Below, piece by piece: positions 3,189-28,470 of a stretch of 32,000 nucleotides of DNA (its first letter is position 1; every line of letters starts with the position of its first letter). The stretch comes from Candidatus Saccharimonadota bacterium (lineage in GTDB: Bacteria; Patescibacteriota; Patescibacteriia; 2-12-FULL-60-25). The DNA lies in NCBI GenBank assembly GCA_023898425.1, contig CP060222.1:660001-692000 (forward strand), given 5' to 3'. A program made the translations under genes and the position numbers. A model generated the notes under the pieces. It had not been told where the DNA came from, made no database searches, and saw only the letters and a list, made by a program, of their open reading frames with translations.

Positions 3189-3622
3189 ACGTTCATGATC
3201 CTCTCTAGGAGCTCTTCTTGCAAGCGAAACATCACCATCTCCTCATCTTCAGTAGCATGATCGTATCCCTTAAGGTGTAAAACCCCATGGATCATCAATC
3301 GAAGCAATTCTTCTCGTGCTGAGATAGCACGACGCTTGGCTTCTCTTGTGGCATAAGAAGGACAAATAACAATATCCCCTAACTCAAATTCTACGGGTGA
3401 TTGCATCGCTGGATCTGCGTTAAATGAAAGCACATCTGTAGGTTTATTTATCTTGCGATACTGCTTATTTAATGTCTGAATTCGTTTTGGCGTGACAAAA
3501 GAAAGACTCACTAAGGTTGCCTTTCGTATTTTTAATTTTTTTGATAATAATTCTGCAGCGCGCGTGATATCGCGTTCAGAAAGCACTTTTGGCAAAGCCG
3601 TAACTCGTGTGAATTGGATCAT
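3185..3622 (-). CDS. ybeY: rRNA maturation endoribonuclease YbeY
   Basis: 145 aa containing HGVLHLKGYDH, the YbeY zinc-binding H-x-x-x-H-x-x-x-x-x-H motif. ATGA overlaps occur at both ends. Confidence 0.9.
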   Translation of the reverse strand: MIQFTRVTALPKVLSERDITRAAELLSKKLKIRKATLVSLSFVTPKRIQTLNKQYRKINKPTDVLSFNADPAMQSPVEFELGDIVICPSYATREAKRRAISAREELLRLMIHGVLHLKGYDHATEDEEMVMFRLQEELLERIMNV

Positions 3623-4998
3623 GGTGATGTTGTTGTGACATTAGGAATATCGACGGTACTTGTTGTCGTGACGGTATTTTCTGTTATTGCTGTAGTGGTA
3701 GTTGTAGCACCCACAACATCACCAGGACCATTTAACAAAGATTCTTCTGGAGGGATCATTTGTACCGGTGCGCCTTCGAGCTCTAGCGAGTTCAACATCA
3801 TCTCATAAATCGTGCGGTAATTGATATACGGCTTACTATCTGGATTGTATTTGAAGATAAAGACGCGTTCTCCCCAGGTGAATACCGCCTCTAAGCGATC
3901 TGGGCTCAAAATCCCCTCTAGACCTTGCTTTGTGGTTAATGAACGCAACATATCAGCCGTTGTTGTAGGACTTTTTGTAAGATACCAATCTTTTGCCGAG
4001 AGCTGCTGTGTATTTGGTACTACCTCGATCAAAAATCTTTCTCCTTGTCCCGTAACAATACTTGCTCTCTCGCCATCCGCGATATCCATCGAGCTCGTCC
4101 AAGCGGATGGCACGATAATCGACCAACCAATCGAGCCTTTAAACGATTTTACTAAGGTTGTATCTAAAATTTTTACTGGTGCTTGTGCCGCAGGATTATA
4201 AAGATGGAATACTTCGTTACCATCTAAGAACCCATCACGATCCGTATCGGGATTACGAGGATCTGTTGAGAAGACAAGCTCCTCGCTATCAGACAAACCA
4301 TCCGAGTCAGAATCAAGTCCTCCAGGTGGCAAAGACGGCGTCACGGGTTGCGCCGAAGCTACCGTCGCTAATGCTTCTGCAGAAGCAGGAGAAGCCCCGC
4401 CTTCGTTAACAGCAGAAATACGATATCGATAACTCAAACCAGCCGAAACACTTACATCAAGAAAAGATGTGCTATTTGCAGGTAGATTCGTCAAAATAGC
4501 AAAAGCTCCATCCGCCGTAGCGCGCTCTAAACGGAAACCTGTTTCGTCATTGGTTGCATCCAACCAAGTTAAGGTAATAGCTTGTGTACCACTCACTGAT
4601 GTCGCCATGATATTTGCTGGCGTTTGTGGAGGTGACTTTACAGGAGTTTCAATAACGGGAGGCGTTGTTACAATAGGTTCTTTTTTACCAAAAAGCGCTT
4701 CGCGATTTACATAAGCAAAACCACCACCGATCAAAAGCAAAATAATCAGCGCAAGAGCAATATATGGCCAAGGCGAAGGCTTTTCTTCTGCCATAGGAAC
4801 CAAAGCCTGTTTTGGCTTTGGTGGTGGCGGTGGTGTAGCGGGAGCAGGTGTTGGTGTTGCTTCTTTGGCCTCCATTTCGCGCGCATCCATCTTTAAAGCG
4901 ACGCCGTAGTATTTCTCCGGCATCACCACGATCTCTGGGGATCGTTTTGGTGACGATGGCGCTTCTGTGGGCGCTTTTGTCGCTTCAAAGGGATTCAT
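3619..4998 (-). CDS. Single-pass membrane protein: Pro-rich N-terminus, TM helix, FN3 domain, thrombospondin-type-3-like Ca-binding repeats, unknown C-terminal domain
   Basis: 459 aa. TM helix PWPYIALALIILLLIGGGFAYV at about aa 76-97. FN3-like segment ITLTWLDATNDETGFRLERA...YRYRISAVNEGGASPAS. Acidic repeats DSDSDGLSDSEELVFSTDPRNPDTDRDGFLDGNEV at about nt 4195..4317. Confidence 0.75.
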   Translation of the reverse strand: MNPFEATKAPTEAPSSPKRSPEIVVMPEKYYGVALKMDAREMEAKEATPTPAPATPPPPPKPKQALVPMAEEKPSPWPYIALALIILLLIGGGFAYVNREALFGKKEPIVTTPPVIETPVKSPPQTPANIMATSVSGTQAITLTWLDATNDETGFRLERATADGAFAILTNLPANSTSFLDVSVSAGLSYRYRISAVNEGGASPASAEALATVASAQPVTPSLPPGGLDSDSDGLSDSEELVFSTDPRNPDTDRDGFLDGNEVFHLYNPAAQAPVKILDTTLVKSFKGSIGWSIIVPSAWTSSMDIADGERASIVTGQGERFLIEVVPNTQQLSAKDWYLTKSPTTTADMLRSLTTKQGLEGILSPDRLEAVFTWGERVFIFKYNPDSKPYINYRTIYEMMLNSLELEGAPVQMIPPEESLLNGPGDVVGATTTTTAITENTVTTTSTVDIPNVTTTSP

Positions 4999-5001
4999 AC
5001 A

Positions 5002-5940
5002 TTAGGGGTTGAGTTTTGGCACCTCACACGTTGGTGTAGCGCACTTTCCGTCTCCACGGGGATTATAACCATTCTTAACCTCGTCACCATCCGGATATGT
5101 ATCTTTATCGGTATCTCTATTTAAAGGATTGGTGCCGTAAATTTTATTTTCATCACCATCTGTTAAACCATCACCGTCAGAATCTGGATTATTTGGATCT
5201 AAGCCTAGCTCGATCTCTTGTTGATCAGATAAACCGTCCTTATCAGTATCAACAACGCTCGTTGTAGATGGTGATGGTACCACTACAGGTGTTGATGTGG
5301 ATGGTAAAGGGATATTAACGCCAGAAGGAGGGATCGTGACCGGAGGTGGTAATGTTAATCCGCCCTTTGTTGTATCAACCTCTGTATCCGTTGACGTAGT
5401 CTCATTACTCGTTGGCGTAGTTGGGATAGGTGTTACCACATTTGTTGTTGTCGCCTGTGGAACGGTGTTTACAACAGGATCTTTTAACGTTGTGTCATTA
5501 GAGTTTTTATTGATCAATGTATAGATACCAAAAGCAGCTCCACCTAGTAAAACCAAAATCAATAAAGCAAGTAGCGCGACCTTCACCATAGATGGGCCCG
5601 TTGATGACGGTACTGGCGCCATTGCAGGCATCACCGGTGTACGCACAGGAGCACGGGTTGGCGCAGAATCCGCAAACATATCTTCTGGCTCTTGTGGCTT
5701 TGAAGACATGTCTTTATCTGTCATAGCCTCCGTAGGCATAGACTGAATTTCTGGACGTTGAGCTGCAACAGGCGCAGGAGCATTAAGCGCATCAGGCAAA
5801 GGGCGCACCGGCGTTGGTGTCGGTGAGTTTGATGCTGGTCTAGGTGTTGCTACCTGAGTTGGCTCAGGTGCTGCCATGGATTCTAATGCTTCGTCCGATA
5901 CATCGTCGGGTGCAAATGGTAAATTGTTTGGCGGATTCAT
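5002..5940 (-). CDS. Single-pass membrane protein with Pro/Thr-rich regions and a C-terminal TSP3-like Ca-binding repeat tail
   Basis: 312 aa. TM helix VALLALLILVLLGGAAFGIY. The tail reads DTDKDGLSDQQEIELGLDPNNPDSDGDGLTDGDENKIYGTNPLNRDTDKDTYPDGDEVKNGYNPRGDGKC (about nt 5005..5256). Confidence 0.72.
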   Translation of the reverse strand: MNPPNNLPFAPDDVSDEALESMAAPEPTQVATPRPASNSPTPTPVRPLPDALNAPAPVAAQRPEIQSMPTEAMTDKDMSSKPQEPEDMFADSAPTRAPVRTPVMPAMAPVPSSTGPSMVKVALLALLILVLLGGAAFGIYTLINKNSNDTTLKDPVVNTVPQATTTNVVTPIPTTPTSNETTSTDTEVDTTKGGLTLPPPVTIPPSGVNIPLPSTSTPVVVPSPSTTSVVDTDKDGLSDQQEIELGLDPNNPDSDGDGLTDGDENKIYGTNPLNRDTDKDTYPDGDEVKNGYNPRGDGKCATPTCEVPKLNP

Positions 5941-5957
5941 AGGCGTTTATTCGTTGA

Positions 5958-6497
5958 TTATACAGGTTGATACAGCGCATCTCCCTCTCCTAATGGATTA
6001 TACCCGTTTTTGATTTCATCCGCATCATTGAAGCCATCACCATCGGTATCAGCCTTATTTGGATCGGTGCCGTAGCGGGCTTCTTCGGTGTCGGGGATGG
6101 AGTCGGAGTCTGAGTCAAGCGAGCTATCTATGCTATTAGATTCATCCACATTTAAATCACTGTTTACCTCTTCTAATACATCTGGCTGTGGATTTAGGGC
6201 TGCTTTTGCTAATTGTTCATTGATGGTGGTAGCAATGTTTTCTTCAGTAGCTTCTACATGACCTTCTGTATAAAACCCTTCGCTTGGCGGATTAGCTATC
6301 CTCTCCACGGACAAGACCGGTATATCATTCGTTGAGGTTGCTTTATTTGTGCCAGATATGACATCAGATACCGTAACCGACACTCCTTCATCGGCTATCT
6401 CTCTATTTCTAAGCCAATAGATACCCGTCAACAATAATGAAATTCCTGTAACCACTGTTAAGATAAAAACGTTTTTTTTGTTGATTGTATTGATCAT
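5958..6497 (-). CDS. Signal-anchored small protein with a C-terminal TSP3-like Ca-binding repeat tail
   Basis: 179 aa. N-terminal hydrophobic anchor VFILTVVTGISLLLTGIYWL. The tail DSDSDSIPDTEEARYGTDPNKADTDGDGFNDADEIKNGYNPLGEGD shares its EVKNGYNP/EIKNGYNP ending with the 312-aa neighbour. Confidence 0.68.
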   Translation of the reverse strand: MINTINKKNVFILTVVTGISLLLTGIYWLRNREIADEGVSVTVSDVISGTNKATSTNDIPVLSVERIANPPSEGFYTEGHVEATEENIATTINEQLAKAALNPQPDVLEEVNSDLNVDESNSIDSSLDSDSDSIPDTEEARYGTDPNKADTDGDGFNDADEIKNGYNPLGEGDALYQPV

Positions 6498-6503
6498 ATT
6501 ACT

Positions 6504-7631
6504 TTATCTTGCATCCCTGAAATTTAGGTACGTCACTCCAGAATCCTCTCCAGTGACCCGGCATTGAGAATTGATAAGCTTGTTCTGTATTGTTATATCC
6601 CCTGTTTTTTCGTTCTGTGAAAAGACATGCCACGCATGAACGTCCGTAGACGTACCTATACCACACGATGTCTTTGACGCAATATCTTTATAATTTAGAG
6701 TATACATATTTTGCGATGTGATCACACGAACACGTAGCCCTAACAATCCTGCATAGGTTTCAGGGTAACGCAATCTGAACGTCCCATCATTATACTCAGT
6801 CTTATAAGTGAAATCTACGATATATTGATAGTTGCCCGTGCCTGTATTCCAGCTAGGGTCTCTACGATAGGCGTCTGTACGTGGGAAAGAATTAGATATT
6901 CCAAATGGATAATTACAGTGTAAATTTATATTTGAATTATCATTTGGAGACGCATTATCTGGTAACACATATCTACCTGGACTTACCTTATCTTTTTGTG
7001 ACCAAGGCGTATAACAAGCCAGATAGGCATGTGGCCAATGCCCTAGATCTATATTCATATCTCCTCTATAAAAATCACGGAAACAATCAATATTGTCTTG
7101 ATTATTTTGCGATGTCCAATTACATGGGTGACTTGGCTCAAACTTGTAAGGACTAGCTGATAAGCGAGTACCATAAGCTACGTCATTACCATCACGATGC
7201 CCCATACTTGGTGGCAAGTACAACCTATTTGTAAAGTATTGGGTTAGATGCTCATTACCACTAGTCTCAGTACCATCAAGAATAACGTAGGTTTCGTTTT
7301 GAGCTACTTTTGGCGCAAGATATAACTTTGCAATCTCCGATCTACTATTGAACGAAAATTGATTTGATTCATATGGCCAGTAACCTCCATTAGCTCCCTC
7401 ATCTGGTTCTGGGATATTTTTGAATGGTTCATCTGGGCTTATTGCTGGATCATAATCTGTAAATTTAACAGGGTTTGTCCCAGGGATAGGCATTCTGTAT
7501 GGGCTATTGTTTACTGTGTATTTCAATACACCCCAAGGCTGTCCATCACATCCATTAAAAGGTCTTCCGGTTTTGACCCCGTACAAATATTGTCTTTGTA
7601 ATAATCGACCACGATTTTGTAGCTTGAACAT
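6504..7631 (-). CDS. Hypothetical Asn/Tyr/Trp/Cys-rich protein with no recognisable family; start uncertain (ATG 7631 or ATG 7493)
   Basis: 375-aa ORF. The first 109 nt overlap the giant gene in another frame. Starting at M47 (7491..7493) removes the overlap. No signal peptide from either start. Six Cys lie after M47. The region is visibly more AT-rich than its neighbours. Confidence 0.6.
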   Translation of the reverse strand: MFKLQNRGRLLQRQYLYGVKTGRPFNGCDGQPWGVLKYTVNNSPYRMPIPGTNPVKFTDYDPAISPDEPFKNIPEPDEGANGGYWPYESNQFSFNSRSEIAKLYLAPKVAQNETYVILDGTETSGNEHLTQYFTNRLYLPPSMGHRDGNDVAYGTRLSASPYKFEPSHPCNWTSQNNQDNIDCFRDFYRGDMNIDLGHWPHAYLACYTPWSQKDKVSPGRYVLPDNASPNDNSNINLHCNYPFGISNSFPRTDAYRRDPSWNTGTGNYQYIVDFTYKTEYNDGTFRLRYPETYAGLLGLRVRVITSQNMYTLNYKDIASKTSCGIGTSTDVHAWHVFSQNEKTGDITIQNKLINSQCRVTGEDSGVTYLNFRDAR

Positions 7632-10600
7632 GCGGGATTTTTCAGAATGTTTTCAAATCTATATTTGCCATCTTTATCTGCTATCACATCCTTAACACGA
7701 AGCCCACGGCTAAAGAGTGTAACGCGTGCTCCAGGTATAGGGTAATATCGATACAACGCATCAAGCACCTGACCTTCAATCACACCGTCTCCAATTGCAT
7801 CCGAACATTTAGCACAACCAGAATACTGACACGTATTGTTACAAGTAATTTCATCACGTCCACTCACCTGACGATTCGCAAAGTCATACCCAAGCGCCTT
7901 ACAGCTTACATTTGGATCAATAGCAACACCTGCTTCACATTGCTCTGGGCTATTTTCATCAACACGTCCATTGCCACAGTACCCACCTGACTGCGCTACT
8001 TGCTGACAAGAAGTCGTACAGGCGAGACACGTTGAACCATAGTCGGCACCATCTGGACATGCGCCACCGTTTTGTGAGCCGAGATCACATTGCTCAACGC
8101 CTGCGTTAATTTTTCCGTCACCACAAATATTCTTTTTACACGAATTTGTATACGTGTCGGTATCGCTACGATTACCGTCATCGCATTCTTCGCCTTGGTC
8201 GACGTTACCGTCTCCACAAGAGCCGACTGGTTTACAGCCAGACCAGTCAGCAAATTGACACTGATTCTGCAAGCCTGGAGACGTACAAACACGCATATTT
8301 TGTGTTTCGTACTCTGCGCAAGTACCGCCTACAGAGGCACAATCGCTATTTGTATTACACGAAACAAAGTTATTCTCTGGAGTTTTAACGGTACAATATT
8401 TCACAGGAGAACAGCCTTCTTTTGTTGTTTCGACATTACCATCGCACTTCTCATACGGAGCGTCGACTTTATTATCACCACAAAATGGCGCAACACCCTG
8501 ACATGATTGAGAACAGGTTAATGCCGCATTACAACCCGGGCCACAATACTCACCATTACGATTACCCAAATCGCAGAGCTCACCCGGTGCTAATTTGTTG
8601 TCACCACAGTAACTATCATAGCCTGTACAGGTACGATTACAGCGACCATAGGTACCATTAAGCGCACTTCCGTCATCACAAACTTCGAGAGTAGGTAGTT
8701 CTGTACATGTGATATTCGAACCTACCGGATCACCCGGTGACTGACATTCGGCTGCATTGCCTGCGTTAGTACATGCTTGACCATACTTTAACCCCTCACC
8801 ACCAAGACACTGTGCACGGTCAATACGACCATTGCCACACATGCTTTGTGCAACACAGGTAGCATTTGATGAATCAACAAAGCCTTTACAATCGTTACAG
8901 ACTTGTAGTTTTGTCCCTGCTGCACCGGAGGCTGTAGAACAAGAAGCGCCACGCGTATCCCCTACTTCACAGACTTCGTTTGTACCGATAACACCATTAC
9001 CACAAACATCGTCTTGGCCGTACTCGGTACCTTGGCAAATACCGCTGTACTTCCAAGTGCCACCAACCGTGAGACATTGACCCGTAGAAACTTGAGCGCC
9101 CGTTGGGCTTGTAACGGTACAATTCGCATCAACAGAACAAGGGCTATCGATATTTGTACAACGCTTAGCTTCTGTTTGTAGTGATGGCACATAACGTGAG
9201 GCATCTGCTGCTTCGAGCTCTGTTCCGAGTTCGAATCGACGGCCACCATCTACGGCACGATATTGATAAATACGTGATACCGATGCTTGTGGTGACGAGG
9301 TATTCAAAACAGGACACATATATCTCTTTGAGATTGTGTTCCAACACGTTGTCGCCTCGAGGCCTGTTTGATTTGCAGGTACATTACAAGTTTGACCAGT
9401 ACCACAATCTGAATCGGTCATACACGCTGATTGTGACGTAGAACAGAATCCACAAGACAAGAAGCGATTTACAGGATCCGTAGCACCGTTATCACCAAAG
9501 ACGGTTTGCCAGCTCGGCCAACGACTCGTCGACATACCCTGAATAAAGCTACCACTATCAAGCGTTGGATAGGTGCCGTTTTGCTCTTTTGTAAGCTCAA
9601 GATTATTACTCATGCGAGAAATATCGGCGATACGCTTAAGATCACGCTGTAACTTAGGCTTAAAGCTCGCACAACGTAGATTGGTATTCTTTTGTAAACA
9701 CTCCCAATCTGCCGTACAAGTGACGCGAGCACCGTTTTCACGATAGGTTTCGCTTACCGAATGACCTGGTTCAGCGATGGCATATTCACAAGCATTTTGA
9801 ACATCATCTTGAAGATTTGCGTTTAAGAAGAAGTTTGCAACAAGCTGATCAAAAATACCTTGCGTGATCTTACTTGCATCGGGGTTACGTGAAATGATGT
9901 AGATATTTGGATAAACGTCGCCATTAGCAAGATCGTTTGTATTTGCTGCCGAAACATAAACAGTAGCTCCATCTTTGAGTGCCTCGTAACCATCGACCGT
10001 TGCTGACTGCGGTGAACCCGAGAACCCTTTTGATGCAAACCAATCACGTATATTTAAGTGCAGTGGATTAGACATCACACGAATACCGATACCATCCCCT
10101 GCTAATTCTGGTGAGCTAGCTGTATCAAAACTAAGAAGATATTGACGTAATACACCTTGTGCACGATCAGCATTTGATAGCTCCACATGAACAGCATTCA
10201 TCGAAGGTAGATCATCTGCTGTGAGATCAAGACTCTCTCCATCGCGACAATACATCGTAGAGAAGTTAAAGAATGTTGGGCCATTAGCTATTTCAGGAGC
10301 ATAATGAGCAAGAGCATCAGAGTTTTCTACATCAGCAAATGCACCCAGATTACGTGCTGGCCATGGATTTTCACAAAGAAGAGCTGTACTCAATAATGCT
10401 CCTCGAATAATTTGATTTGTTGACGAAGGTGTTGTGACGGCATCGTTTGTAATACGTAACTCAGCTGAAATATACGAGCTTCCCATCTTGTCTTTTGAAG
10501 AAACATCTGCCTGTGTGCCACCGACCTGATTTCCGGCGATACCAGCAACAGAGAATACCGGCTCTTCAGAAGAGCTCCATGGCTGCCACTCCCAATTATA

Positions 10601-13600
10601 TTCTGTAACAGGTGACAAGAGCGAAGCGGACCCTGCCTGAACCGAAACAACTTGAGCATTGTACCGATGGGTCTCGTTTACTTTTGTAAAGGTAGCTGGT
10701 GAATCAACGTTTGTATCCGAAACACGAATATCCGATATCGTACAAATGCTTGCACCTGTAGTAAATGGCCAGAATTGTGATCCTGACATTACAACACCGC
10801 GCTTAGACATAATGCCCGTTTTACCATCTGGGTTATCCGTAAGATTTACGTCGCCACGTACCAATACACCGTATTGTGTATTCGCTTTTAATGCCGAAGA
10901 GATATACAAGTATGCCGTCGTTTGACCATTTGATTCTGTTGTAGAAATCGTTCCTTTTACACTGCCTGCACAATACACATCCGCTTGAGCTGGCTTTACA
11001 AAGAACGCGGTTACCCAGTTTTTGATTTTTGCAAACCAACCTTGCGGAGAAGCTTGTACGATAGTGACATCCTCAAGACCAGCAGGACACGCAGTACCTG
11101 AATGTACTTCAGTAATAATCAAATGATTCGTAATAGACTGCTCATCCATTAGCGTATTGAACTTAAGAGTGAAAGCTGTATTGCGACATACACCCGTTGC
11201 GCCTGAAGCTGGTGTCGCCGAGACAATATCCGGACGTGGCGCACAGCAACCCGATTGATCAAGGCCAGTCCCACTAGGACAAGACAGCTCCGTCGTATAA
11301 CCACATTTTAACCCATAGACCGCTGAACCTGTTTTTTGTGTGACGGTTGCGTTTAGCACCGAGCTCATAAGTCCGCTTGCATCTGGGTTGGCTTCGCCTA
11401 CGATTTCAGCTAGCTGAATGGCATCTGGGCTTGTACCAGCACCTGCACTTTCACACATAATGGATTCACCGATACCTGTGACACCATCACCACAGAAAGA
11501 AGGGTTGATATAGGATGCAGACGAACCCTCTAAGAGACAACTACTCGAACAGCCGTCACCTGCTACTGAATTTCCGTCATCGCAGGTTTCGCCTGCAGTA
11601 AGATCTGTATTACCGTTGCCACAACAAGCACCGATACTGGTACTGGTACATGCTTGCGTACCCGTCTTGAGACAGGTGTTTGCATCACAGCCTGCGATAG
11701 GCCATACACCGCCGATTTTTTCACAGGTCTCACCGGCTTCTTGAATACCATTGCCACAAAGCGCAACAACCGCTGTTGATCCTTCGTTGGTACAAATACT
11801 GCTACAGCCGTCACCGCTACGCGTATTACCGTCATCACAAGACTCCCCGTCAGCAATGTCTCCATTACCACAAGTAGAACCACCTTCGTTTGCTCCCAAT
11901 ACCTGACAATCTGCTGAACAGCCCGGTGTACCATTTGGACCTGGGTCACATTGCTCCCCACGATCAATAGTTCCATTACCACATTGTGCGCTCGCTGAAG
12001 GCTTCCAAAGACACTGCGAAGAACAGGTTGCTGTTTCTGAACCTTCGTCACACTCTTCGCCACCTATAGCATCTGCAGACAAGATGACACAATTATCTCC
12101 AAAAATCGTACGCCCATTAATACAGTAGGCGGCATTTTTTGTTTCGACGATACGGTTTCCGCAAGAAGCCGTTTTTCCTGCGACACCTGTAGCACCGGTT
12201 TGGATACAACGGTCTGTACAACCTGCTGCACGATTTTTTGATGTACTCACCAAGCCTGTAGAAGGAGCGTTTCCGTTACCACCATTAATAAAGCGACTTA
12301 CGTCACCGCTTTGATCAATAGACCAATTGTAAGACTGGTTATTTGAGAGGATCTGTCCTTTTTGTGAACAGCTATCAGGAGCGGATTTTGTGCTTGCCGC
12401 AAACAATTGTCGTTGACCAACAACTGTTTCGATCTTTTTCATCGGCGAAACATCAACAGCCGCAATACCGCACATCGTGTCATCTGAGTCTTTTACACGG
12501 AAGGTCCATGTATATCCCTCAGGGCTATTTAAGTCGGTAAGGAGTAAGCCATCAACCGATCGCACACCCTGCAAAGTACCACCACGAACCGTAACTTTAT
12601 AGAACTTACCACGTTGAAGCAGTGTATTGCCTTGGTTATCCAACATGTCTAGCTTTGCAAAACGTAGCTTTGGATCATTTGAGCCAGGTACCGCCGAAAG
12701 CGTTGCCGAAGGTAATTGACTTGGCATCCAAATTTGATCAAAGGTGCGGCAATTTTCATTGGTACAACGACGTACTTCAAAGGCATTTGCTACAGAAGCG
12801 GCATTCATTGGCACACTGAACTCAGCCCATACGGCAGCATTGCTACAGGCGCTGTCACAACCCGGACCATAATTAACTATTGTTGGAGGCTGTGGACGAA
12901 TATAGAGATCGGCTGTATCAAGATAATCTTCACCACCAAGTACGATAGCAAGCTCAACTTTGACAGGGTCATTACCCGTATCAGCAAGACCTGTTGCAAC
13001 TTGATCAAGAGACTGTGTTTGGCCATCAATAGTATTTGTGATAGATGCACGACCATCTGAAGTAGACCATTGTGCTGTATACGTAAGACCATTCCAGTTC
13101 ATCACGATACAAGCATCCTCTCTTGGATAACCAATAACGGTATAGTCACGTGTTTCATTTAAGGTGCTCATCTCTGCTGTATTTGGCAATACATCAATAC
13201 TTCCTAAGAGACAAACATCCGCTTCGTTACGTGTTTTAAACGTAAAACAGTATGCATTACCAGCGCCACACTCGGTATTTTCTGCCATTGGAATACCTGT
13301 TGAGGACAAGATGCCTGTAGTAAGAACAACTTGATAGGTTGATTGTTCGATCCAAGTACCACCAACAACCTGTGCTTGAATATATCCTTCGTCACCATTA
13401 GTACCTACTCGTGGGTAGTTTGGGGCAAAATCAACCAACTCTTTTGTGACACAAGCGTCAGCACCTGATCCTGTACAACGATAAAGCTGAATGGTACGGG
13501 ATGAGCCGGTCCCTACAATGCTTGTCTCATCTAGATGAGTATTAAAGCGCAAATACACGTCACTATTTACACAAACATTATTTCCGCCTTGATGGTTACT

Positions 13601-16201
13601 CCATGGCGAAGGTGATGGAGGTTTATTTTGGCTACATTCTTCGATAACCAAAGGATTAACCGGGATAATACCCGTAGAAACCGTCCAAGCAAATTGAGCC
13701 GATGTAACAGCAGCCGCACAGACACCACCAACCGAACAAGCACCTGAAGCACAACATTGTTCGCTTGCACCACAAATACCGGCATTTTCTTGACAGCTTT
13801 GCACGGCAAAAGGCACCGCATTTGAGTTTACGGCATTGACGGCTACCGACACATTGCCCGTTCGTGAACCCGCTGGCACAAAAGACGAAACCGTCTGACT
13901 CGTCCAATCCCCGCTTTCAACTGTTGCATCAACGCGCGCGGTGCCTGTACCCGTAAAGGTAAGTTGACCAGCATTTGAAAAATTCTCACCAACGACGTCG
14001 ATAGGTGTTCCAACAGGACCTGATGCTGGGCGAATCGCACAAATACCAGGAGTAGGCGTACCACTCTCAACCACAAAGCTCGCCGCCGAAGATGCGACAG
14101 CATCAGAACGCTCAAGAACAACAGTATAAGGCCCAGGAGCAACTGCTTCGTTTCCAATACCCGCACTGACATTTGCAGGAACCTTAACGGTGACCGCTGT
14201 ATTTGACCAAAAGCCTGTACCACAAGCTGCTGGAAAATTTGTATCTGCAATACCCGTTGCACCATCAGCACGTTTAAAGGTTACCTTACCTACCGTATTA
14301 CCAAAGTCCGTACCTTGAAGGGTAATATATTGCCCGATAGCACCACGATCCGGCGTAATACTATTAATTTTTGGCGCTGATGCAGCTGTTCTCGTATCGA
14401 TTCTAAAGGCTCGTTGATTTGAAGAGATATTGTTTGATACGACAGAAACCGGATAGTTTGCCGGAGTATAAACAGGGGTATTTAAAATAATCGATGTGTC
14501 GGACCATGTTTGCACGGTTGATGCTTCGCGATCAGCAAAAAAGACTTTTCCGGCTGTTGCACCAAAGCCAATACCACGAATCTCGATACGATCACCACTA
14601 AAACCTGAGTCTGGTGAAATCTGACATATCGCAGGATGAGCAACATCATTAACAACAAAAGGCTCTAAAACAGGACCGTTTGTATCAATTGAAGAATCCG
14701 TAAGATTATTTGTTGCATGTTGCACATCAAGTCCACCCGTCTCAGCGCCAGCAGGTACCTCTACAAGAATTGAATTACTCGTCCACGTTGCAACACCGCT
14801 TGCAAGACAAGCCTGCGCCGGTTGCGCCACGACACCATTCGTAAAGCGAACGGTTCCAGGCGAATTACCAAATCCACGACCCGTAATTGACACGACGGTT
14901 CCTGGGCGACCATCTAGAGGTGAGATACCTGTAATGAGCGGCGCATCGACACAGATATTATTCACACAAGCGCCCGAAGAACAATCGCTATTACCAGTAC
15001 AACTAGTGCCTGAGCAAGCGCCGCAAGATCCTCCACAATCAATCGCCGTTTCATCACCATTCAATAAACCATCAGCACAGTAAGCAGGACGAACGGTAAT
15101 TGTTATTGAATTTGAATTGGTAAAGTTTGAATCTAAATCAAAGACTTTTACAGAGAGCGTGTGGCTTCCTGGTGTTAAAATCGTTGAGTCAATCTGACCA
15201 GAAAGCGTCGTAACCCCATTATCAGTGCCAGAAATAACGGCATTACCTCTCGTGCTGCCGTCTAAAAGAATTTCTGCCATTGAGATACCCGAATCATCGG
15301 TTGCTGTAGCAGATACAGAAACCGAGTCGCCCTGCACAAAAATCGCTCCGTTTAATGGTGTGACAAGACTAACGCTTGGCGCTTGTGTATCCACAAGATC
15401 ACCTGTTTCAAAATCCGCTGTACATGCTGGTGCAAAACCGCCACATGTAATCGCGAGTCCTGATACTGAACGCGTACCGCTTCCAACACGAATGGTAAAA
15501 CCTGTATTTGCCTCTAAACATTTACGATCTTCGTTTGGTGCTGGACATGTTGCCGTAGGGACAAAGGTTGCTACCGAACCGATAAGCAACCACTCACCTT
15601 CGACAGCTGATTGATCCGATGTTTTAACAACCTGAATATCAGCATTCGTCGCATCTACTTCGCGAGAAAAAACGATACGAGGCTCAACATTACGCAAAGG
15701 CACTGAACCCGTAGGTGTTATGCTTTGAACTTGAAAAGATTGGCTTGAGCCTCCCCCACCTAAGCCACCACCGGAGCCAGAACCACCAGAGCCGCCACTA
15801 CCACCATTATTCCCATTGGTAGCAGACAATAACGTACTAATAACAAAAGCCGTGATCCCCCATGCTGACAAAATAATCACTAAACCGATAACGGCATTGG
15901 TAAGGGTTCGTTTTGCTTTTGCGATTTTTTCTGCATCTCCTCCAGAAGTCATCCATGTAAAACCCGCATACAAAATAATCAAAACAAGAATGATTCCGAT
16001 AATTCCGAGTGTTGCATTGATAATACGCACGATAATGGTGCGCGGATCTGTTCCTGATAGGTTTACCGTTTGACCCACTTCGTTGAGGCCAAGCGTGTCT
16101 TGTGTTTGCGCAAGAACTGATGGCGCATAAACAGCAAGAGCCATCATGACGATGATGGCGGCAAGTGGGGCGATCCAGCCCAATAAACGTTTGTTTTTCA
16201 T
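7523..16201 (-). CDS. Giant (2892 aa) surface protein: signal peptide, VirB2/TrbC-like pilin hairpin, Gly/Ser linker, Ig-like domains, 4x IPT/TIG, SbsA/Big_5-like Ig domains, two arrays of CGNG...CDDGN...GDGC Cys-rich repeats, and a C-terminal carboxypeptidase-regulatory-like beta domain
   Basis: Uninterrupted 8679-nt ORF with ATG at 16199..16201 and TGA at 7523..7525. The N-terminus MKNKRLLGWIAPLAAIIVMMALAVYAPSVLA|QT is followed by two TM helices around LYAGFTWMTSGGDAEKIAKAK. The domain motifs are read directly from the translation. Confidence 0.92.
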   Translation of the reverse strand: MKNKRLLGWIAPLAAIIVMMALAVYAPSVLAQTQDTLGLNEVGQTVNLSGTDPRTIIVRIINATLGIIGIILVLIILYAGFTWMTSGGDAEKIAKAKRTLTNAVIGLVIILSAWGITAFVISTLLSATNGNNGGSGGSGGSGSGGGLGGGGSSQSFQVQSITPTGSVPLRNVEPRIVFSREVDATNADIQVVKTSDQSAVEGEWLLIGSVATFVPTATCPAPNEDRKCLEANTGFTIRVGSGTRSVSGLAITCGGFAPACTADFETGDLVDTQAPSVSLVTPLNGAIFVQGDSVSVSATATDDSGISMAEILLDGSTRGNAVISGTDNGVTTLSGQIDSTILTPGSHTLSVKVFDLDSNFTNSNSITITVRPAYCADGLLNGDETAIDCGGSCGACSGTSCTGNSDCSSGACVNNICVDAPLITGISPLDGRPGTVVSITGRGFGNSPGTVRFTNGVVAQPAQACLASGVATWTSNSILVEVPAGAETGGLDVQHATNNLTDSSIDTNGPVLEPFVVNDVAHPAICQISPDSGFSGDRIEIRGIGFGATAGKVFFADREASTVQTWSDTSIILNTPVYTPANYPVSVVSNNISSNQRAFRIDTRTAASAPKINSITPDRGAIGQYITLQGTDFGNTVGKVTFKRADGATGIADTNFPAACGTGFWSNTAVTVKVPANVSAGIGNEAVAPGPYTVVLERSDAVASSAASFVVESGTPTPGICAIRPASGPVGTPIDVVGENFSNAGQLTFTGTGTARVDATVESGDWTSQTVSSFVPAGSRTGNVSVAVNAVNSNAVPFAVQSCQENAGICGASEQCCASGACSVGGVCAAAVTSAQFAWTVSTGIIPVNPLVIEECSQNKPPSPSPWSNHQGGNNVCVNSDVYLRFNTHLDETSIVGTGSSRTIQLYRCTGSGADACVTKELVDFAPNYPRVGTNGDEGYIQAQVVGGTWIEQSTYQVVLTTGILSSTGIPMAENTECGAGNAYCFTFKTRNEADVCLLGSIDVLPNTAEMSTLNETRDYTVIGYPREDACIVMNWNGLTYTAQWSTSDGRASITNTIDGQTQSLDQVATGLADTGNDPVKVELAIVLGGEDYLDTADLYIRPQPPTIVNYGPGCDSACSNAAVWAEFSVPMNAASVANAFEVRRCTNENCRTFDQIWMPSQLPSATLSAVPGSNDPKLRFAKLDMLDNQGNTLLQRGKFYKVTVRGGTLQGVRSVDGLLLTDLNSPEGYTWTFRVKDSDDTMCGIAAVDVSPMKKIETVVGQRQLFAASTKSAPDSCSQKGQILSNNQSYNWSIDQSGDVSRFINGGNGNAPSTGLVSTSKNRAAGCTDRCIQTGATGVAGKTASCGNRIVETKNAAYCINGRTIFGDNCVILSADAIGGEECDEGSETATCSSQCLWKPSASAQCGNGTIDRGEQCDPGPNGTPGCSADCQVLGANEGGSTCGNGDIADGESCDDGNTRSGDGCSSICTNEGSTAVVALCGNGIQEAGETCEKIGGVWPIAGCDANTCLKTGTQACTSTSIGACCGNGNTDLTAGETCDDGNSVAGDGCSSSCLLEGSSASYINPSFCGDGVTGIGESIMCESAGAGTSPDAIQLAEIVGEANPDASGLMSSVLNATVTQKTGSAVYGLKCGYTTELSCPSGTGLDQSGCCAPRPDIVSATPASGATGVCRNTAFTLKFNTLMDEQSITNHLIITEVHSGTACPAGLEDVTIVQASPQGWFAKIKNWVTAFFVKPAQADVYCAGSVKGTISTTESNGQTTAYLYISSALKANTQYGVLVRGDVNLTDNPDGKTGIMSKRGVVMSGSQFWPFTTGASICTISDIRVSDTNVDSPATFTKVNETHRYNAQVVSVQAGSASLLSPVTEYNWEWQPWSSSEEPVFSVAGIAGNQVGGTQADVSSKDKMGSSYISAELRITNDAVTTPSSTNQIIRGALLSTALLCENPWPARNLGAFADVENSDALAHYAPEIANGPTFFNFSTMYCRDGESLDLTADDLPSMNAVHVELSNADRAQGVLRQYLLSFDTASSPELAGDGIGIRVMSNPLHLNIRDWFASKGFSGSPQSATVDGYEALKDGATVYVSAANTNDLANGDVYPNIYIISRNPDASKITQGIFDQLVANFFLNANLQDDVQNACEYAIAEPGHSVSETYRENGARVTCTADWECLQKNTNLRCASFKPKLQRDLKRIADISRMSNNLELTKEQNGTYPTLDSGSFIQGMSTSRWPSWQTVFGDNGATDPVNRFLSCGFCSTSQSACMTDSDCGTGQTCNVPANQTGLEATTCWNTISKRYMCPVLNTSSPQASVSRIYQYRAVDGGRRFELGTELEAADASRYVPSLQTEAKRCTNIDSPCSVDANCTVTSPTGAQVSTGQCLTVGGTWKYSGICQGTEYGQDDVCGNGVIGTNEVCEVGDTRGASCSTASGAAGTKLQVCNDCKGFVDSSNATCVAQSMCGNGRIDRAQCLGGEGLKYGQACTNAGNAAECQSPGDPVGSNITCTELPTLEVCDDGSALNGTYGRCNRTCTGYDSYCGDNKLAPGELCDLGNRNGEYCGPGCNAALTCSQSCQGVAPFCGDNKVDAPYEKCDGNVETTKEGCSPVKYCTVKTPENNFVSCNTNSDCASVGGTCAEYETQNMRVCTSPGLQNQCQFADWSGCKPVGSCGDGNVDQGEECDDGNRSDTDTYTNSCKKNICGDGKINAGVEQCDLGSQNGGACPDGADYGSTCLACTTSCQQVAQSGGYCGNGRVDENSPEQCEAGVAIDPNVSCKALGYDFANRQVSGRDEITCNNTCQYSGCAKCSDAIGDGVIEGQVLDALYRYYPIPGARVTLFSRGLRVKDVIADKDGKYRFENILKNPACSSYKIVVDYYKDNICTGSKPEDLLMDVMDSLGVY
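7799..9013 (-). repeat. Cys-rich repeat array 2 (degenerate CGNG/CGDN/CGDG...C(D/E)...C units) inside the giant gene
   Basis: Repeat units seen: CGNGVIGTNEVCEVGD, CGNGRIDRAQC, CDDGSALNGTYGRCNRTC, CGDNKLAPGELCDLGNRNGEYCGPGC, CGDNKVDAPYEKCDG, CGDGNVDQGEECDDGNRSD, CGDGKINAGVEQCDLGSQNGG and CGNGRVDENSPEQCE. Confidence 0.65.
11442..12063 (-). repeat. Cys-rich repeat array 1 (Myxococcus-type cysteine-rich repeat pattern) inside the giant gene
   Basis: Repeat units seen: CGNGTIDRGEQCDPGPNGTPGCSADC, CGNGDIADGESCDDGNTRSGDGCSSIC, CGNGIQEAGETCE..., CGNGNTDLTAGETCDDGNSVAGDGCSSSC and CGDGVTGIGE. Confidence 0.7.
13798..14941 (-). repeat. Four tandem IPT/TIG-like Ig domains (protein-level repeats) inside the giant gene
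   Basis: The four repeats start at PLITGISPLDGRPGTVVSITGRGFG, PAICQISPDSGFSGDRIEIRGIGFG, PKINSITPDRGAIGQYITLQGTDFG and PGICAIRPASGPVGTPIDVVGENF. Confidence 0.75.
15743..16201 (-). other. N-terminal module of the giant protein: signal peptide, pilin-like two-TM hairpin (aa 33-126) and Gly/Ser linker (aa 127-153)
   Basis: The segment TDPRTIIVRIINATLGIIGIILVLIILYAGFTWMTSGGDAEKIAKAKRTLTNAVIGLVIILSAWGITAFVISTLL is followed by NGNNGGSGGSGGSGSGGGLGGGGSS. Confidence 0.7.
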
Positions 16202-16207
16202 GTGAAA

Positions 16208-18145
16208 TTACGGAAGTCTTATAGGAGCAACACATCCACCCGCTTGTGGACGACCATTACAGCAATTAGGATTTTGCGTATTTGCAGCACAGCTCACGGA
16301 TGCGGCTGGTACATAACAATTTTGATACAGATTCTGAATGCCAGAATTAAGCACCGGTTGATAAATCGGCACAATTGCTGTAGCGCCTGTACCAGTAGCC
16401 GCAACAAAGAGACGATGATCGATCGTAATCTTACCAAGCGATGTTGTGTCACCAACGCCTGCTACAGAACCTGCGGATGTAAGCGGTTGATAGGATGCCG
16501 ACCACCAAAAAGTATCCGCCATACGTGCTGGCTCATTTGTCTGCAGAACAACTTCGTCACTATTGACCGTTGATGCACGTAAAGGCGTATCAAACGTCGC
16601 ATCAATCATTGCATCAACTGAAAGATTACTCGAAGCACCAGCATCACCGGCGCGTGGATTTGTTGAGCGAATAACCGGAGCATCTAAGTTTGGTCTGTCC
16701 GTCGTCTGAAATGTCCAACCGTAGTCATCATTACCTGCTACAGCATCGCTATCAGAACCTTGGGCTTGATTATCGCCATTACCATCTAAAGAATTGCTCG
16801 CAAGATCTACAATACCATCATACAGAGAACCTGATACGGCAGCTGTTGGTGGATTATCACTCAAGGTTGCTGCTTTTGCGACCACAGCAATAGCCGTGCT
16901 CGCAGGCAAACAATAGATTGTTGAACCACAAGAATTTGTGCCACAGCTTTGATCGGTGACAAATTCTAAGGTTCGGTATTGATTTGATAATTTAAATGAG
17001 CCATTAGGACGCGTTGTCCCGCCAGCCGTCACCTGAACATTGGTAAATCCTGAACCATTTTGAAACATTCCTGATGCAGAAACAGGATCAACCGCTTCGC
17101 TAAACTGCATTTGCACAATCACGTTTGGCGCATAGGAGCCGCCGTCAGTAGGAATAACCGAAGTTACACGTGGAGGCGTATTATCGATGATGGTCGATAC
17201 TTGAAATTGCCATTTATATCCTGCGCTAAAACTCCCTCCGAATGCAGCTGAATTATCTTCTCGACGCAAACCGTTTAATCCTCCAACAAACTCAACCGTA
17301 TAATCCGTGTCTACGGTTGGGCTACCGAGATATTGCACGGGACGAATCACAAAGGTCTGACGATCGTCGGTAAAACTTACACGCGCCTCGGTTGTGGATA
17401 AAGCCTGATCACGTTTACCGGATGGATATACTTTTACAATGTCCGCATTTAAGCCGATGGTTGTCGTGCGACCAGCATCATCAGCAAGATTTGAAGGTGT
17501 CCCATTGTCGTCATAACCAGCAATCATGGTTGAAAGCTTGATTGGTTCTTTGAAGGTGATAACGATGGCTGTATTACGCGCAATACCGGTTGCATCACGA
17601 GCCGGAATATGAGACTCGACGATCCCTGCACCGAGCGCACCGGCAGAACCAGGAAATCCACCATTATTACCAAACGGGTCACCTGTACCGGATCCGCCGC
17701 CAAGACCACCATCGCCCGCTAAAAGCCCGATAACAAATGCGGTGATCGCAAAAGAAGAAACGATGATAATTAACCCAATAATACCGTTACGAATCCAGAG
17801 TTTTGCTTTTTCGATTTGTTCATTATTGCCACCCGCCGTCATCCACAACCAACCTGCATAGATGATAATAACGAGCAATACGATACCCATGAAACCCAAA
17901 AAGATATTGATGATACGACCAATAATCGTAGGAAGATCCGTTTGCGTTTCTAAACCGGTGGCAGCACCAACTTCGGTGAGACCTGGGTCAACGGTTTGTG
18001 CAAAGACGGCGGATGGGGCGGCAAAAAAAGCGACGCAAAAAAACACCGCAATCACGACAGCGAAAATACTCGCCATCCGTGATCGTGCGGTGCTTCTTAC
18101 GGAACCATCCGAAAGCATGGGAAGGAGGGATCCAAACATGTACAC
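16208..18145 (-). CDS. 645-aa surface protein: signal peptide, VirB2/TrbC-like pilin hairpin, Gly-rich linker, three SbsA/Big_5-like Ig domains, Cys-rich C-terminus
   Basis: The ORF-track start at 18145 is GTG, and an ATG lies at 18137..18139. Signal-like stretch ASIFAVVIAVFFCVAFFAAPSAVFA|QT. The hairpin PTIIGRIINIFLGFMGIVLLVIIIYAGWLWMTAGGNNEQIEKAKLWIRNGIIGLIIIVSSFAITAFVIGLL is paralogous to the giant gene's N-terminus. Big_5-like starts include PPRVTSVIPTDGGSYAPNVIVQMQFSEAVD. Confidence 0.88.
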   Translation of the reverse strand: MYMFGSLLPMLSDGSVRSTARSRMASIFAVVIAVFFCVAFFAAPSAVFAQTVDPGLTEVGAATGLETQTDLPTIIGRIINIFLGFMGIVLLVIIIYAGWLWMTAGGNNEQIEKAKLWIRNGIIGLIIIVSSFAITAFVIGLLAGDGGLGGGSGTGDPFGNNGGFPGSAGALGAGIVESHIPARDATGIARNTAIVITFKEPIKLSTMIAGYDDNGTPSNLADDAGRTTTIGLNADIVKVYPSGKRDQALSTTEARVSFTDDRQTFVIRPVQYLGSPTVDTDYTVEFVGGLNGLRREDNSAAFGGSFSAGYKWQFQVSTIIDNTPPRVTSVIPTDGGSYAPNVIVQMQFSEAVDPVSASGMFQNGSGFTNVQVTAGGTTRPNGSFKLSNQYRTLEFVTDQSCGTNSCGSTIYCLPASTAIAVVAKAATLSDNPPTAAVSGSLYDGIVDLASNSLDGNGDNQAQGSDSDAVAGNDDYGWTFQTTDRPNLDAPVIRSTNPRAGDAGASSNLSVDAMIDATFDTPLRASTVNSDEVVLQTNEPARMADTFWWSASYQPLTSAGSVAGVGDTTSLGKITIDHRLFVAATGTGATAIVPIYQPVLNSGIQNLYQNCYVPAASVSCAANTQNPNCCNGRPQAGGCVAPIRLP

Positions 18146-23187: not shown

Positions 23188-24447
23188 TTTGCGTGTCTCG
23201 AGCGAGATCTCCATGAGACGATTGTATTTTTCGACGCGCTCAGAACGAGAGAGACTACCGGTTTTGATATAGTCTGATCCGCAAGCATAAGCAAGGTCAG
23301 CAATAAACGTATCCGACGTTTCTCCTGAGCGATGCGAGATCGCTGTTTTAAAACCATTGGTATGAGCCATGATAATGGCTTCGACCGTTTCTGTGACTGT
23401 ACCGATTTGATTTGGCTTAATAAGAATAGCATTTGCTGCTTTTTCTTCTATTCCACGCTTAAGACGATCGACATTTGTGACAAAGAAATCATCACCAACA
23501 ATAACAGACTTCTTTTTAAGTTTTGGTAACGCTTTGATCCAGGCAGCCCAATCATCTTCGGCAAATGGATCTTCTATAGATTCGAGAGGATACTTTTTTT
23601 TGTAACTCGAGATACCGTTGCGTTAACTCATCCGATGTATAGGTCTTACCCTCAGTCTTCATCTCGTAGACACCTTTTTGGCGTTATAAAATTCAGAGGC
23701 GGCAATGTCTGTAGCGAGCGTGATATCTTTACCGGGTTTATAACCCGCTTTTTTAATAGCTTGAACCAGCACATCAAAAGCATTTTCTATTGTGTGAAGC
23801 TGTGGCGCAAAACCACCTTCATCACCTACCGTCGTTGTAAAACCGTTTTGCTTTAAGATCCCCGCTAGGGCATGAAATACTTCAGAGCCTGCTCGAATAC
23901 GCTCTTCGATAGTGCGTTGTTTTGGAACAATCATGCACTCTTGGACATCGAGTGACCAGTTTGCATGAGCGCCACCATTTAAAACGTTCATGGTAGGGAT
24001 AGGCATCTTTGCTGCACGCGGAAACGCGTAGATACGTCTTAAGGTTTTCCACAATGGTTCTTTACGATGCATCGCTACCGCTTCGGCACAAGCAATCGAA
24101 ACCGCAAGCATCGCATTTGCTCCAAGATGGGATTTTGTTGCTGTGCCATCCAGCTCTCTCATTTTTTCATCAATAGAGGTGAGTTTTGCCGCATTCATGC
24201 CTTTTAAGGCGCTCGCAATAGGTCCATTGACGTGTTTTACCGCTTTAAGAACACCTTTGCCACCATAGCGCTTACCACCATCACGAAGCTCTAAAGCTTC
24301 ATGTGAGCCTGTAGAAGCTCCGCTTGGTACTCTCGATTCTGCTGACGCACCAGAAGAGAGTGTCACGCGACACGCGACGGTTGGATTGCCTCGAGAGTCG
24401 AGAATTTCTCGTGCAACGATAGATTTTATTTTTGTATTAATAAACAT
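23185..24447 (-). pseudogene. eno: Enolase, interrupted by two compensating 1-nt frameshifts at homopolymer tracts
   Basis: The N-terminal 258 aa (…AASEFYNAKK) and the C-terminal part ([16 protein letters not shown]...[16 protein letters not shown]...[18 protein letters not shown]) share one frame. The conserved segment [27 protein letters not shown] between them is encoded in a different frame. As written, the main frame hits TGA at 23659..23661. Confidence 0.9.
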
Positions 24448-28411: not shown

Positions 28412-28470
28412 ATCTGCTACAAGGATAACATACAAACATCTCCCCTCGAACCCCCTACCCCCAACAAACG

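Follow-up and report, generated by a model that had tools for sequence, protein, structure and literature searches.

What would a bacterium want with a single, cysteine-laden protein of 3,232 amino acids (aa) that starts out like a pilin, and does the strain sequenced here make the whole of it? Both questions are posed by a 32,000-nucleotide (nt) stretch of contig CP060222.1 (positions 660,001 to 692,000 of the forward strand; assembly GCA_023898425.1), here called the window, the minus strand of which has at 7523..16201 an ATG-initiated open reading frame (ORF) of 2892 codons, just as an earlier note on this DNA had it. The answer we favour, with rather more belief than doubt, is that the gene specifies a membrane-anchored giant surface fibre or adhesin, vertically inherited, of a Magasanikbacteria-like member of the Patescibacteria (candidate phyla radiation, CPR). 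Much of bacterial diversity belongs to the Patescibacteria; to our knowledge all members cultivated so far live attached to other microbes, and we know of descriptions of their contact molecules only from a few Saccharibacteria. For lineages of the Magasanikbacteria and Uhrbacteria type a single 3,200-aa fibre would be a concrete, conserved contact candidate.

The reading frame and its break

A 2892-aa open frame that ~100 homologs keep is, we judge, not attributable to chance. These homologs, of 3000-3850 aa, cover 90-100% of the query and all contain the C-terminal part. Nearly all of the 118 matches from the protein search, and every full-length one, come from Patescibacteria or from unnamed metagenome bacteria, the one other name being Myxococcota (a weak match of 2% coverage). 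The families matched by the domains are bacterial or universal, and with every full-length homolog being Patescibacterial the 'eukaryote-like' strand of the mosaic that had been suspected finds no support.

The gene had also been taken as uninterrupted, and its last recognised domain as terminal; both are wrong because of a frameshift at 7570. The best match, P0001, is a 3232-aa 'IPT/TIG domain-containing protein' with the C-terminus ...VTYLNFRDAR, from a metagenome-assembled genome (MAG) of Candidatus Magasanikbacteria, and against it the gene is laid out as follows.

6504..16201, minus strand: full gene, 3232 aa in intact relatives (P0001 is collinear with ORF 7523..16201 plus ORF 6504..7631)
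7569..7571, minus strand: frameshift site (plus strand GG in the window versus GGG in locus L001, by blastn)

On the gene strand CC stands for CCC at 7570, a 1-nt homopolymer deletion within the codons ...AAA CC(C) GGA AGA CC.... The first 2,877 residues match the intact protein, past which the frame is shifted and reaches a stop at 7523; the remaining ~355 residues are held, in the right frame, by the 375-aa ORF at 6504..7631, annotated as a separate hypothetical protein. There are accordingly two coding sequences in the NCBI record, USN52137.1 (the exact 2892-aa product) and USN52136.1 (the exact 375-aa product), on a contig of 1,032,900 bp.

Is the deletion in the cell or in the data? An alignment of 26.2 kb joins L001 (contig JAGQLA010000011.1, which carries P0001) to the window; identity is 99.66%, and there are 83 mismatches, mostly transitions, and 5 gaps. 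All four single-base indels between them (5985, 7570, 23601 and 23679) are homopolymer length changes and two break enolase, and because of this the truncation at 7570 is most likely a homopolymer sequencing error, such a pattern together with a broken core glycolytic gene being typical of long-read data. That the frameshift is instead genuine, with a tip-less 2892-aa protein being made, with or without a separate 375-aa product, by natural loss or on/off switching of the tip, seems to us unlikely. The deletion does lie 3 codons past the last conserved sandwich, at the very junction of trunk and tip, some homologs (P0055, P0057, P0058 and P0059) are naturally tip-less, and the two annotated coding sequences would suit the idea; a 3-nt run is, however, too short for efficient slipped-strand switching, the homopolymer pattern extends to all four indels, and the frame is intact, with 3232 aa, in three independent assemblies (NCBI, Logan and ENA). 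The wider point is that in long-read MAGs one homopolymer error can silently truncate a giant gene, which is then annotated as two proteins.

The assembly faults that had been feared, chimerism and repeat collapse, can be rejected. In the giant gene TRF and a direct-repeat search turned up neither long DNA repeats nor tandem arrays; they yielded only three diverged 38-nt units, spaced 111-114 nt and 63-74% identical, which belong to Cys-rich array 1 (below). Collinearity with the independent contig is complete. The actual problem is the homopolymer indel.

Other features of the contig comparison deserve record in their own right. Enolase (window 23188-24447, minus strand) is out of frame over 26 codons between two T-homopolymer length differences of opposite sign, at 23601 and 23679 (78 nt from one another), and meets a stop at 23659; the sister contig has an intact enolase of 420 aa. 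Within the giant gene 11 of the 17 differences from L001 cluster within 250 nt (window 12623-12873, aa ~1110-1193) and include several amino-acid changes (N/S, R/Q, Q/P, I/V). They fall in a loop of low conservation, and the cluster could reflect a patch of recombination or a site of local hypervariability. Codon 2684 (at 8151) reads TAT, for Tyr, in the window, but the residue is Cys in P0001 and in at least 90% of 55 homologs; the count of Cys is thereby odd, which points to a sequencing error or else to a variant with an unpaired Cys. The two 99.66%-identical contigs go under different NCBI labels, Candidatus Nomurabacteria (USN52137.1) and Candidatus Magasanikbacteria (MCA9391199.1), at least one of which is wrong. 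On a further contig (JAXLZL010000001.1, locus L005) a 131-aa 'hypothetical protein', P0265, is 79% identical to the giant's N-terminus and a 79%-identical central domain is borne as well; here too a break in assembly or annotation may have divided a giant gene.

Anchor, stalk and central domain

How might so long a chain be held to its cell? The protein begins with three elements.

16109..16201, minus strand: signal peptide, aa 1-31, probable cleavage between VLA and QT (hydrophobic segment aa 4-33; conservation of A31 and Q32)
15818..16042, minus strand: VirB2-like T4SS_pilin hairpin, aa 54-128 (PF18895, hydropathy, likeness to free-standing pilins)
15737..15817, minus strand: Gly/Ser-rich flexible linker, aa 129-155 (sequence)

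Among 55 homologs (32-73% identity) A31 never varies and Q32 is kept in at least 90%; Sec would export the pre-protein, and the signal peptide would be removed after Ala31. The pilin-like anchor of the earlier note is upheld: PF18895 (T4SS_pilin) matches aa 54-119 with E=8.5e-12 and 45.4 bits against a cut-off of 26.6, and NF045849 (Mbov_0395 pilin-like) reaches 41.5 bits against 40, TrbC (PF04956) at 22.2 bits being under its cut-off of 27.9. To judge from these profiles it is a pilin of VirB2/TrbC type, not a type IV pilin. Its two hydrophobic helices (aa 54-88 and 99-128) have the Lys/Arg-containing loop TSGGDAEKIAKAKRTLTN between them, and free-standing PF18895 pilins of Patescibacteria, of 119-167 aa, share 40-55% identity with the protein's first 135 aa. 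In the giant the domain takes up the opening 4% of 3,232 aa rather than forming a small stand-alone subunit of ~100-170 aa.

The hairpin, at the mature N-terminus, would hold the protein in the cytoplasmic membrane, with, by topology rules, the Lys/Arg loop inside and the residues past 128 outside. A hydropathy scan of the window ORF shows no hydrophobic segment in the 2,764 residues that follow aa 128, and because of this everything after that point, by extension the last ~355 residues too, should be outside the cell. Neither the domain scans nor the sequence, though no dedicated motif search was made, gave an LPXTG/sortase signal, a type I secretion system C-terminal signal, RTX, an autotransporter barrel or a lipobox.

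Past the linker comes a long succession of modules.

15149..15736, minus strand: two Ig-like domains, Big_5-like aa 156-248 and Big_7 aa 275-351 (Pfam segment scan)
14951..15079, minus strand: Cys-knot module, aa 375-417, CxDGxxNGDETxxDCGGxCGxC plus CTGNSDCSSGACVNNIC (conserved columns)
13802..14941, minus strand: four IPT/TIG domains, aa ~421-800, boundaries approximate (PF01833)
12164..13591, minus strand: Big_5-like aa 871-988, then conserved beta-rich modules without family, aa ~989-1346 (profile, conservation)
11402..12163, minus strand: Cys-rich repeat array 1, aa 1347-1600, made of six ~37-aa units of CGNG/CGDG type (TIGR02232)
10397..11236, minus strand: Big_5 (SbsA-like) aa 1656-1810 and a further beta domain to aa 1935 (PF13205)
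9017..10396, minus strand: central conserved domain, aa 1936-2395, 460 aa (AlphaFold2 model, homolog conservation)
7802..9004, minus strand: Cys-rich repeat array 2, aa 2400-2800 (DUF4215, weak, 4 stretches)

Much of this architecture had been anticipated in the earlier note. Its two Ig-like domains come down to a firm Big_7 (E=8e-13, 45.6 bits) and a weak Big_5 copy below cut-off (E=0.0032). Its knot motif is present at aa 375-396 (CADGLLNGDETAIDCGGSCGAC); C375, E384, C389, G390, C396, C401, C407, C412 and C417 show little or no variation, and aa 375-417 matched no Pfam family in the segment scan. The four IPT/TIG domains appear as four stretches of PF01833 (E=1.4e-23, 83.1 bits against a cut-off of 20.9; best aa 523-599 and 610-709). 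For 'several' SbsA/Big_5-like domains one has to read one clear case, PF13205 with E=7e-11 and 58.4 bits against 23.6 (best stretch aa 1656-1708, at the quoted RPDIVSATP, with RPDIVSATPASG at aa 1656), and copies at aa 156-248 and 871-988 (the latter E=4e-4) below cut-off, the aa 871-1346 region having conserved Cys and Trp columns. Two Cys-rich arrays are indeed there: TIGR02232 (myxo_disulf_rpt) has E=5.5e-17 and 61.3 bits against 20.8 in 6 stretches, DUF4215 is borderline (19-28 bits around a cut-off of 27, with 28 bits in array 1), and in array 2 CGNG/CGDG/CGDN motifs occur at aa 2400, 2455, 2532, 2574, 2662, 2693 and 2742, with invariant Cys and Glu columns.

The estimate of well over 100 cysteines was sound, 138 (4.8%, beside 11% Gly) being counted in the 2892-aa ORF with peaks at aa 800-1000, 1300-1650 and 2150-2800. 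The intact protein has 146, of which 108 reach a conservation of 90% or more in the 55 homologs; this is strong evidence for structural disulfides, the lack of a hydrophobic segment after aa 128 being in keeping with the bonding outside the cell that had been proposed. The Ig-like, TIG and Big_5 sandwiches, along with the two arrays of disulfide-knotted ~37-aa repeats, would form a stiff stalk, by the number of domains many tens of nanometres long, with the conserved 460-aa globular domain set two-thirds of the way along it.

That central domain, with ALLCENPWP at aa 1940, had been noted as a ~450-aa region of no recognised family at nt 9450..10800. The place was some 400 nt off; the rest stands, no Pfam, NCBIfam or PDB relative having emerged from the domain scans and from PDB sequence and profile searches. 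An AlphaFold2 model from an alignment of 22 homologs (mean predicted local distance difference test score, pLDDT, 85.4; predicted template modelling score 0.85) is mixed alpha/beta, with a 29-residue helix (KLQRD..R..D....LE) at query residues 245-273 and, past it, the motifs G.YP.L..G, W.SW and DP.N. Foldseek gave nothing at E<1e-3 in PDB or BFVD.

Three identities tried for the domain were set aside. Mog1/PsbP-like candidates (BT_1490, PsbP, TplEi and Tsi3; E at least 4.8e-3, TM at most 0.42 over a sub-domain) and phage lipoproteins in BFVD (E~1e-2) were too weak to assign. An embedded type IV pilin head or type II secretion system pseudopilin (PF08334) was not supported: T2SSG matches at E=0.012-0.05 and in only 3 of 28 family members (E at least 0.012), pilins are absent from the top 50 Foldseek matches and there is no PDB profile match, which leaves a motif resemblance only, RD..R..D....LE....G.YP.L.

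Exhaustive phmmer searching put the central domain in 1272 representative clusters at 50% identity, 1147 of them at E<=1e-10. Most of the top matches are giants with the domain near residue 2000. In six shorter secreted proteins that were inspected (P0168, P0204, P0238, P0254, P0232 and P0245; 267-1,062 aa) its core (query ~95-330; window 9400-10110, giant aa ~2030-2265) comes directly after the signal peptide, and many more of the listed matches have it at an N-terminal position; these shorter proteins continue with other Cys-rich or Ig-like regions. The domain is a genuine, widespread, unannotated extracellular family without a Pfam entry, and it merits both an entry and a structure.

The sandwich and the tip

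Beyond array 2 the protein changes character, from a trunk that relatives share to an end that they do not.

7571..7783, minus strand: transthyretin/CarboxypepD_reg-like beta-sandwich, aa 2807-2877 (PF13620 weak; AlphaFold2 and Foldseek)
6504..7568, minus strand: hypervariable C-terminal tip, ~355 aa, aa 2878-3232 (low identity across homologs)

The CarboxypepD_reg-like sandwich had been recognised at VIEGQVLDALYRYY (aa 2807) as the end of the protein. In the window protein PF13620 (E=6e-5, 23.7 bits) falls under the 32.3 cut-off; precomputed PF13620 matches in many homologs and the fold lend the call some backing and make it plausible. Its terminal position is an effect of the frameshift. AlphaFold2 gives it a pLDDT of 82-95, and Foldseek pairs it with transthyretin, HIU hydrolase, SdrD and BcpA (prob 0.99-1.0 over ~60-97 residues), the fold matches having TMt 0.4-0.5 over ~60 residues.

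Identity to P0001 across the family is 30-60% in the trunk, falling in residues 2890-3232 to 10-19% with many gaps. P0004, 71% identical overall, has past position 2800 only the first 75 residues in common and then a different tip of ~535 residues. The tip is likewise replaced in P0028, P0033 and P0034, is absent in the four naturally tip-less homologs named above, which end shortly after the sandwich, and in a distant subfamily (P0066, P0075 and P0087) contains a VWA domain. Of the window tip itself there is no Pfam match and no PDB sequence match. Taking the C-termini of P0064, P0066, P0070, P0075 and P0087 into account, one family has these alternatives at its end: a VWA-containing tip, a Cys-rich one of ~550-640 aa, the window type, and none.

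A trunk alignable across orders with a tip that differs between close relatives is the pattern expected of a determinant of host specificity. In the fibre that we favour the transthyretin-like sandwich would bear a fast-diverging, exchangeable C-terminal tip, and the latter, going by the conservation pattern and the VWA tips in relatives, would contact a ligand, most likely the surface of a host cell or of a particle.

The locus, its rival readings and known systems

Almost all plausible genes of the window are on the minus strand and are of a housekeeping kind (RF1, S2, Tsf, GAPDH, PGK, enolase, MiaA, LepB, HisRS and YqeY, with YbeY, DgkA and FtsA further along); scans of the window for tRNA and Rfam families gave no matches. 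The giant's immediate neighbours are as follows.

16208..18145, minus strand: upstream partner, 645 aa, whose T4SS_pilin anchor is paralogous to the giant's; three Big_5 stretches (Pfam)
3619..6497, minus strand: three proteins encoded downstream, each with one membrane pass and with bacterial TSP3 (Ca-binding) repeats; fn3 in one of them (Pfam, hydropathy, order in L001-L004)

In loci where the giant is only 30-44% identical one still finds YqeY, partner, giant, TSP3 proteins, YbeY, DgkA, FtsA, FtsZ and NrdR in that order, with LepB and HisRS upstream in three of the four loci. The partner gene stops 6 nt short of the giant's ATG; it is directly upstream in all of L001-L004, with a 4-nt overlap in L002-L004, and it is 48% identical to the giant's N-terminus over 121 aa. 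The giant would be co-translated with this shorter protein bearing the same anchor. The partner ends in a short Cys-rich tail (CYVPAASVSCAANTQNPNCCNGRPQAGGCVAPIRLP), which might pair with the giant protein. Its exact sequence was not found in a collection of 15 billion proteins in which the neighbours' proteins were.

Two adjacent genes with the same VirB2-like domain invite another thought. Could the giant be a true substrate or subunit of a Patescibacterial type IV secretion system (T4SS), its hairpin extracted from the membrane and built into a pilus or the tip or base of one, and the 3,100-aa ectodomain a pilus-borne adhesin? The likeness to free-standing pilins is above the Pfam threshold over those first 135 aa, and other Patescibacterial giants (P0100-P0116) join PF18895 to LamG, FG-GAP or fn3 ectodomains. 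VirB2-like pilins are widespread in Patescibacteria, T4SS-cluster pilins are essential in Southlakia (one strain tested), and no adhesin of the PrgB type has come to light for the CPR T4SS (PMC12102498, PMC10633639). Against this, no VirB4, VirB6, VirB3, coupling-protein or relaxase gene lies in the 32-kb window or within 10 kb either side in the four syntenic loci, and the T4SS genes of the ABY1 class adjoin comF/recG/radA, not ftsA/ftsZ (PMC12102498). Further, an appendage of 3,100 aa on each subunit would be sterically incompatible with a helical VirB2 polymer and would permit a minor or tip role at most. We think incorporation into a T4SS quite unlikely, and give as little credence to the version in which giant and partner are modified VirB2 pilins mounted at the tip or base of the pilus. 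Were it so, the giant would be the missing host-contact adhesin of the CPR T4SS with the exchangeable tip setting host range, and the central domain, which recurs in over 1,000 further clusters of secreted CPR proteins, would count as a new surface module specific to the lineage.

The downstream TSP3 group has its own small peculiarities. At 5985 a C-homopolymer indel alters the last residues of a 179-aa TSP3 protein (182 aa in L001), 240 nt downstream of an in-frame GGT insertion at 6228-6230. A fourth TSP3-repeat protein (window 27488-28435, minus strand; 315 aa, N-terminal signal and C-terminal hydrophobic tail) stands between tsf and gap at a distance of 11 kb; for so small a genome segment, surface proteins with Ca-binding TSP3 repeats are strikingly frequent.

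The fixed, operon-like cluster lies immediately upstream of ybeY-dgkA-ftsA-ftsZ, and such a setting would befit a structural component of the envelope, S-layer-like or a wall-spanning scaffold, that serves shape or division and not cell binding. Big_5 is the Ig-like domain of the S-layer protein SbsA, the trunk is conserved over 2,850 aa, and the adjoining TSP3 and fn3 membrane proteins look structural too. S-layer proteins are, however, usually far shorter and Cys-poor, there is no sign of lattice-forming self-association, and a hypervariable, swappable and sometimes VWA-type tip is a signature of ligand recognition rather than of a lattice. An envelope scaffold is in our view improbable.

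The anchored fibre or adhesin thus remains our choice, with several considerations telling against it. The conserved single locus beside ftsA/ftsZ, in its housekeeping context, would also fit the envelope role just discussed, and the anchor's closeness to real pilins leaves room for more than anchoring. The AlphaFold2 model of residues 2800-3232 has a pLDDT of 68.7 overall and of less than 50 over 116 residues, Foldseek found no structural match in the tip beyond the first sandwich, and the window protein's own tip has no recognisable ligand-binding domain. If the frameshift is real, the source strain makes a tip-less protein. Surface location and adhesion are, moreover, predictions from sequence and modelled structure.

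Which features have no precedent? Within the literature that could be searched there are four: an N-terminal anchor of pilin descent joined to an ectodomain of 3.2 kaa, a central domain family that lacks annotation, a constant cluster of partner and TSP3 genes beside ftsA/ftsZ, and the documented exchange of tips; that literature has no description of the giant family, nor of PF18895 fused to giant ectodomains. Already known are large Cys-rich CPR proteins as proposed attachment factors and, elsewhere, giant adhesins of stalk-plus-tip design.

The nearest of these precedents is in the Peregrinibacteria, also of the CPR, whose large Cys-rich extracellular proteins vary between strains, have weak similarity to myxococcal repeats and were proposed as attachment factors (Anantharaman et al. 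2016, PMC4736985). They have in common with the giant their signal peptides, very large size and Cys-richness; they differ in averaging ~1,650 aa, in forming multi-gene clusters and in having no reported pilin-type anchor (PMC4736985), whereas the giant family has ~3,200-3,800 aa, one conserved locus (4/4 loci), a VirB2-like hairpin, a TIG/Big_5 stalk and a variable tip. In Saccharibacteria surface adhesins are essential for epibiotic growth, and in Southlakia a pilin array is essential (PMC10633639). With the VirB2/TrbC pilins of T4SSs (PF18895; Quinonero-Coronel et al. 2025, PMC12102498) the giant shares signal peptide and two-helix hairpin, but known Patescibacterial pilins are of ~120-170 aa and often in arrays near virB4, in contrast to 3,232 aa with no T4SS gene nearby. 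Giant fibrillar adhesins ('periscope', Bap, SiiE and LapA types, LPXTG-anchored; PMC9704523) resemble it in their tandem Ig-like stalk, distal binding module and variation in length and tip; the giant departs from them in its N-terminal pilin-like anchor, in stalk units that are diverged and not near-identical, and in heavy disulfide bonding.

Myxococcal Cys-rich acidic repeat proteins (TIGR02232/DUF4215) have the unit CGNGxxExGExCDDGNxxxGDGCSxxC in common with both arrays of the giant, in which such repeats are only ~20% of the protein and lineage, anchor and other domains are different. SpaC and RrgA are pilus-tip adhesins with VWA domains, and SpaC is among the weak Foldseek matches of the model of residues 2800-3232. 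The giant's distant subfamily is like them in having a terminal VWA domain on Ig-like and transthyretin-like sandwiches; the window protein is unlike them in that its tip is not VWA, sortase-mediated polymerisation has no part, and the whole stalk is one polypeptide.

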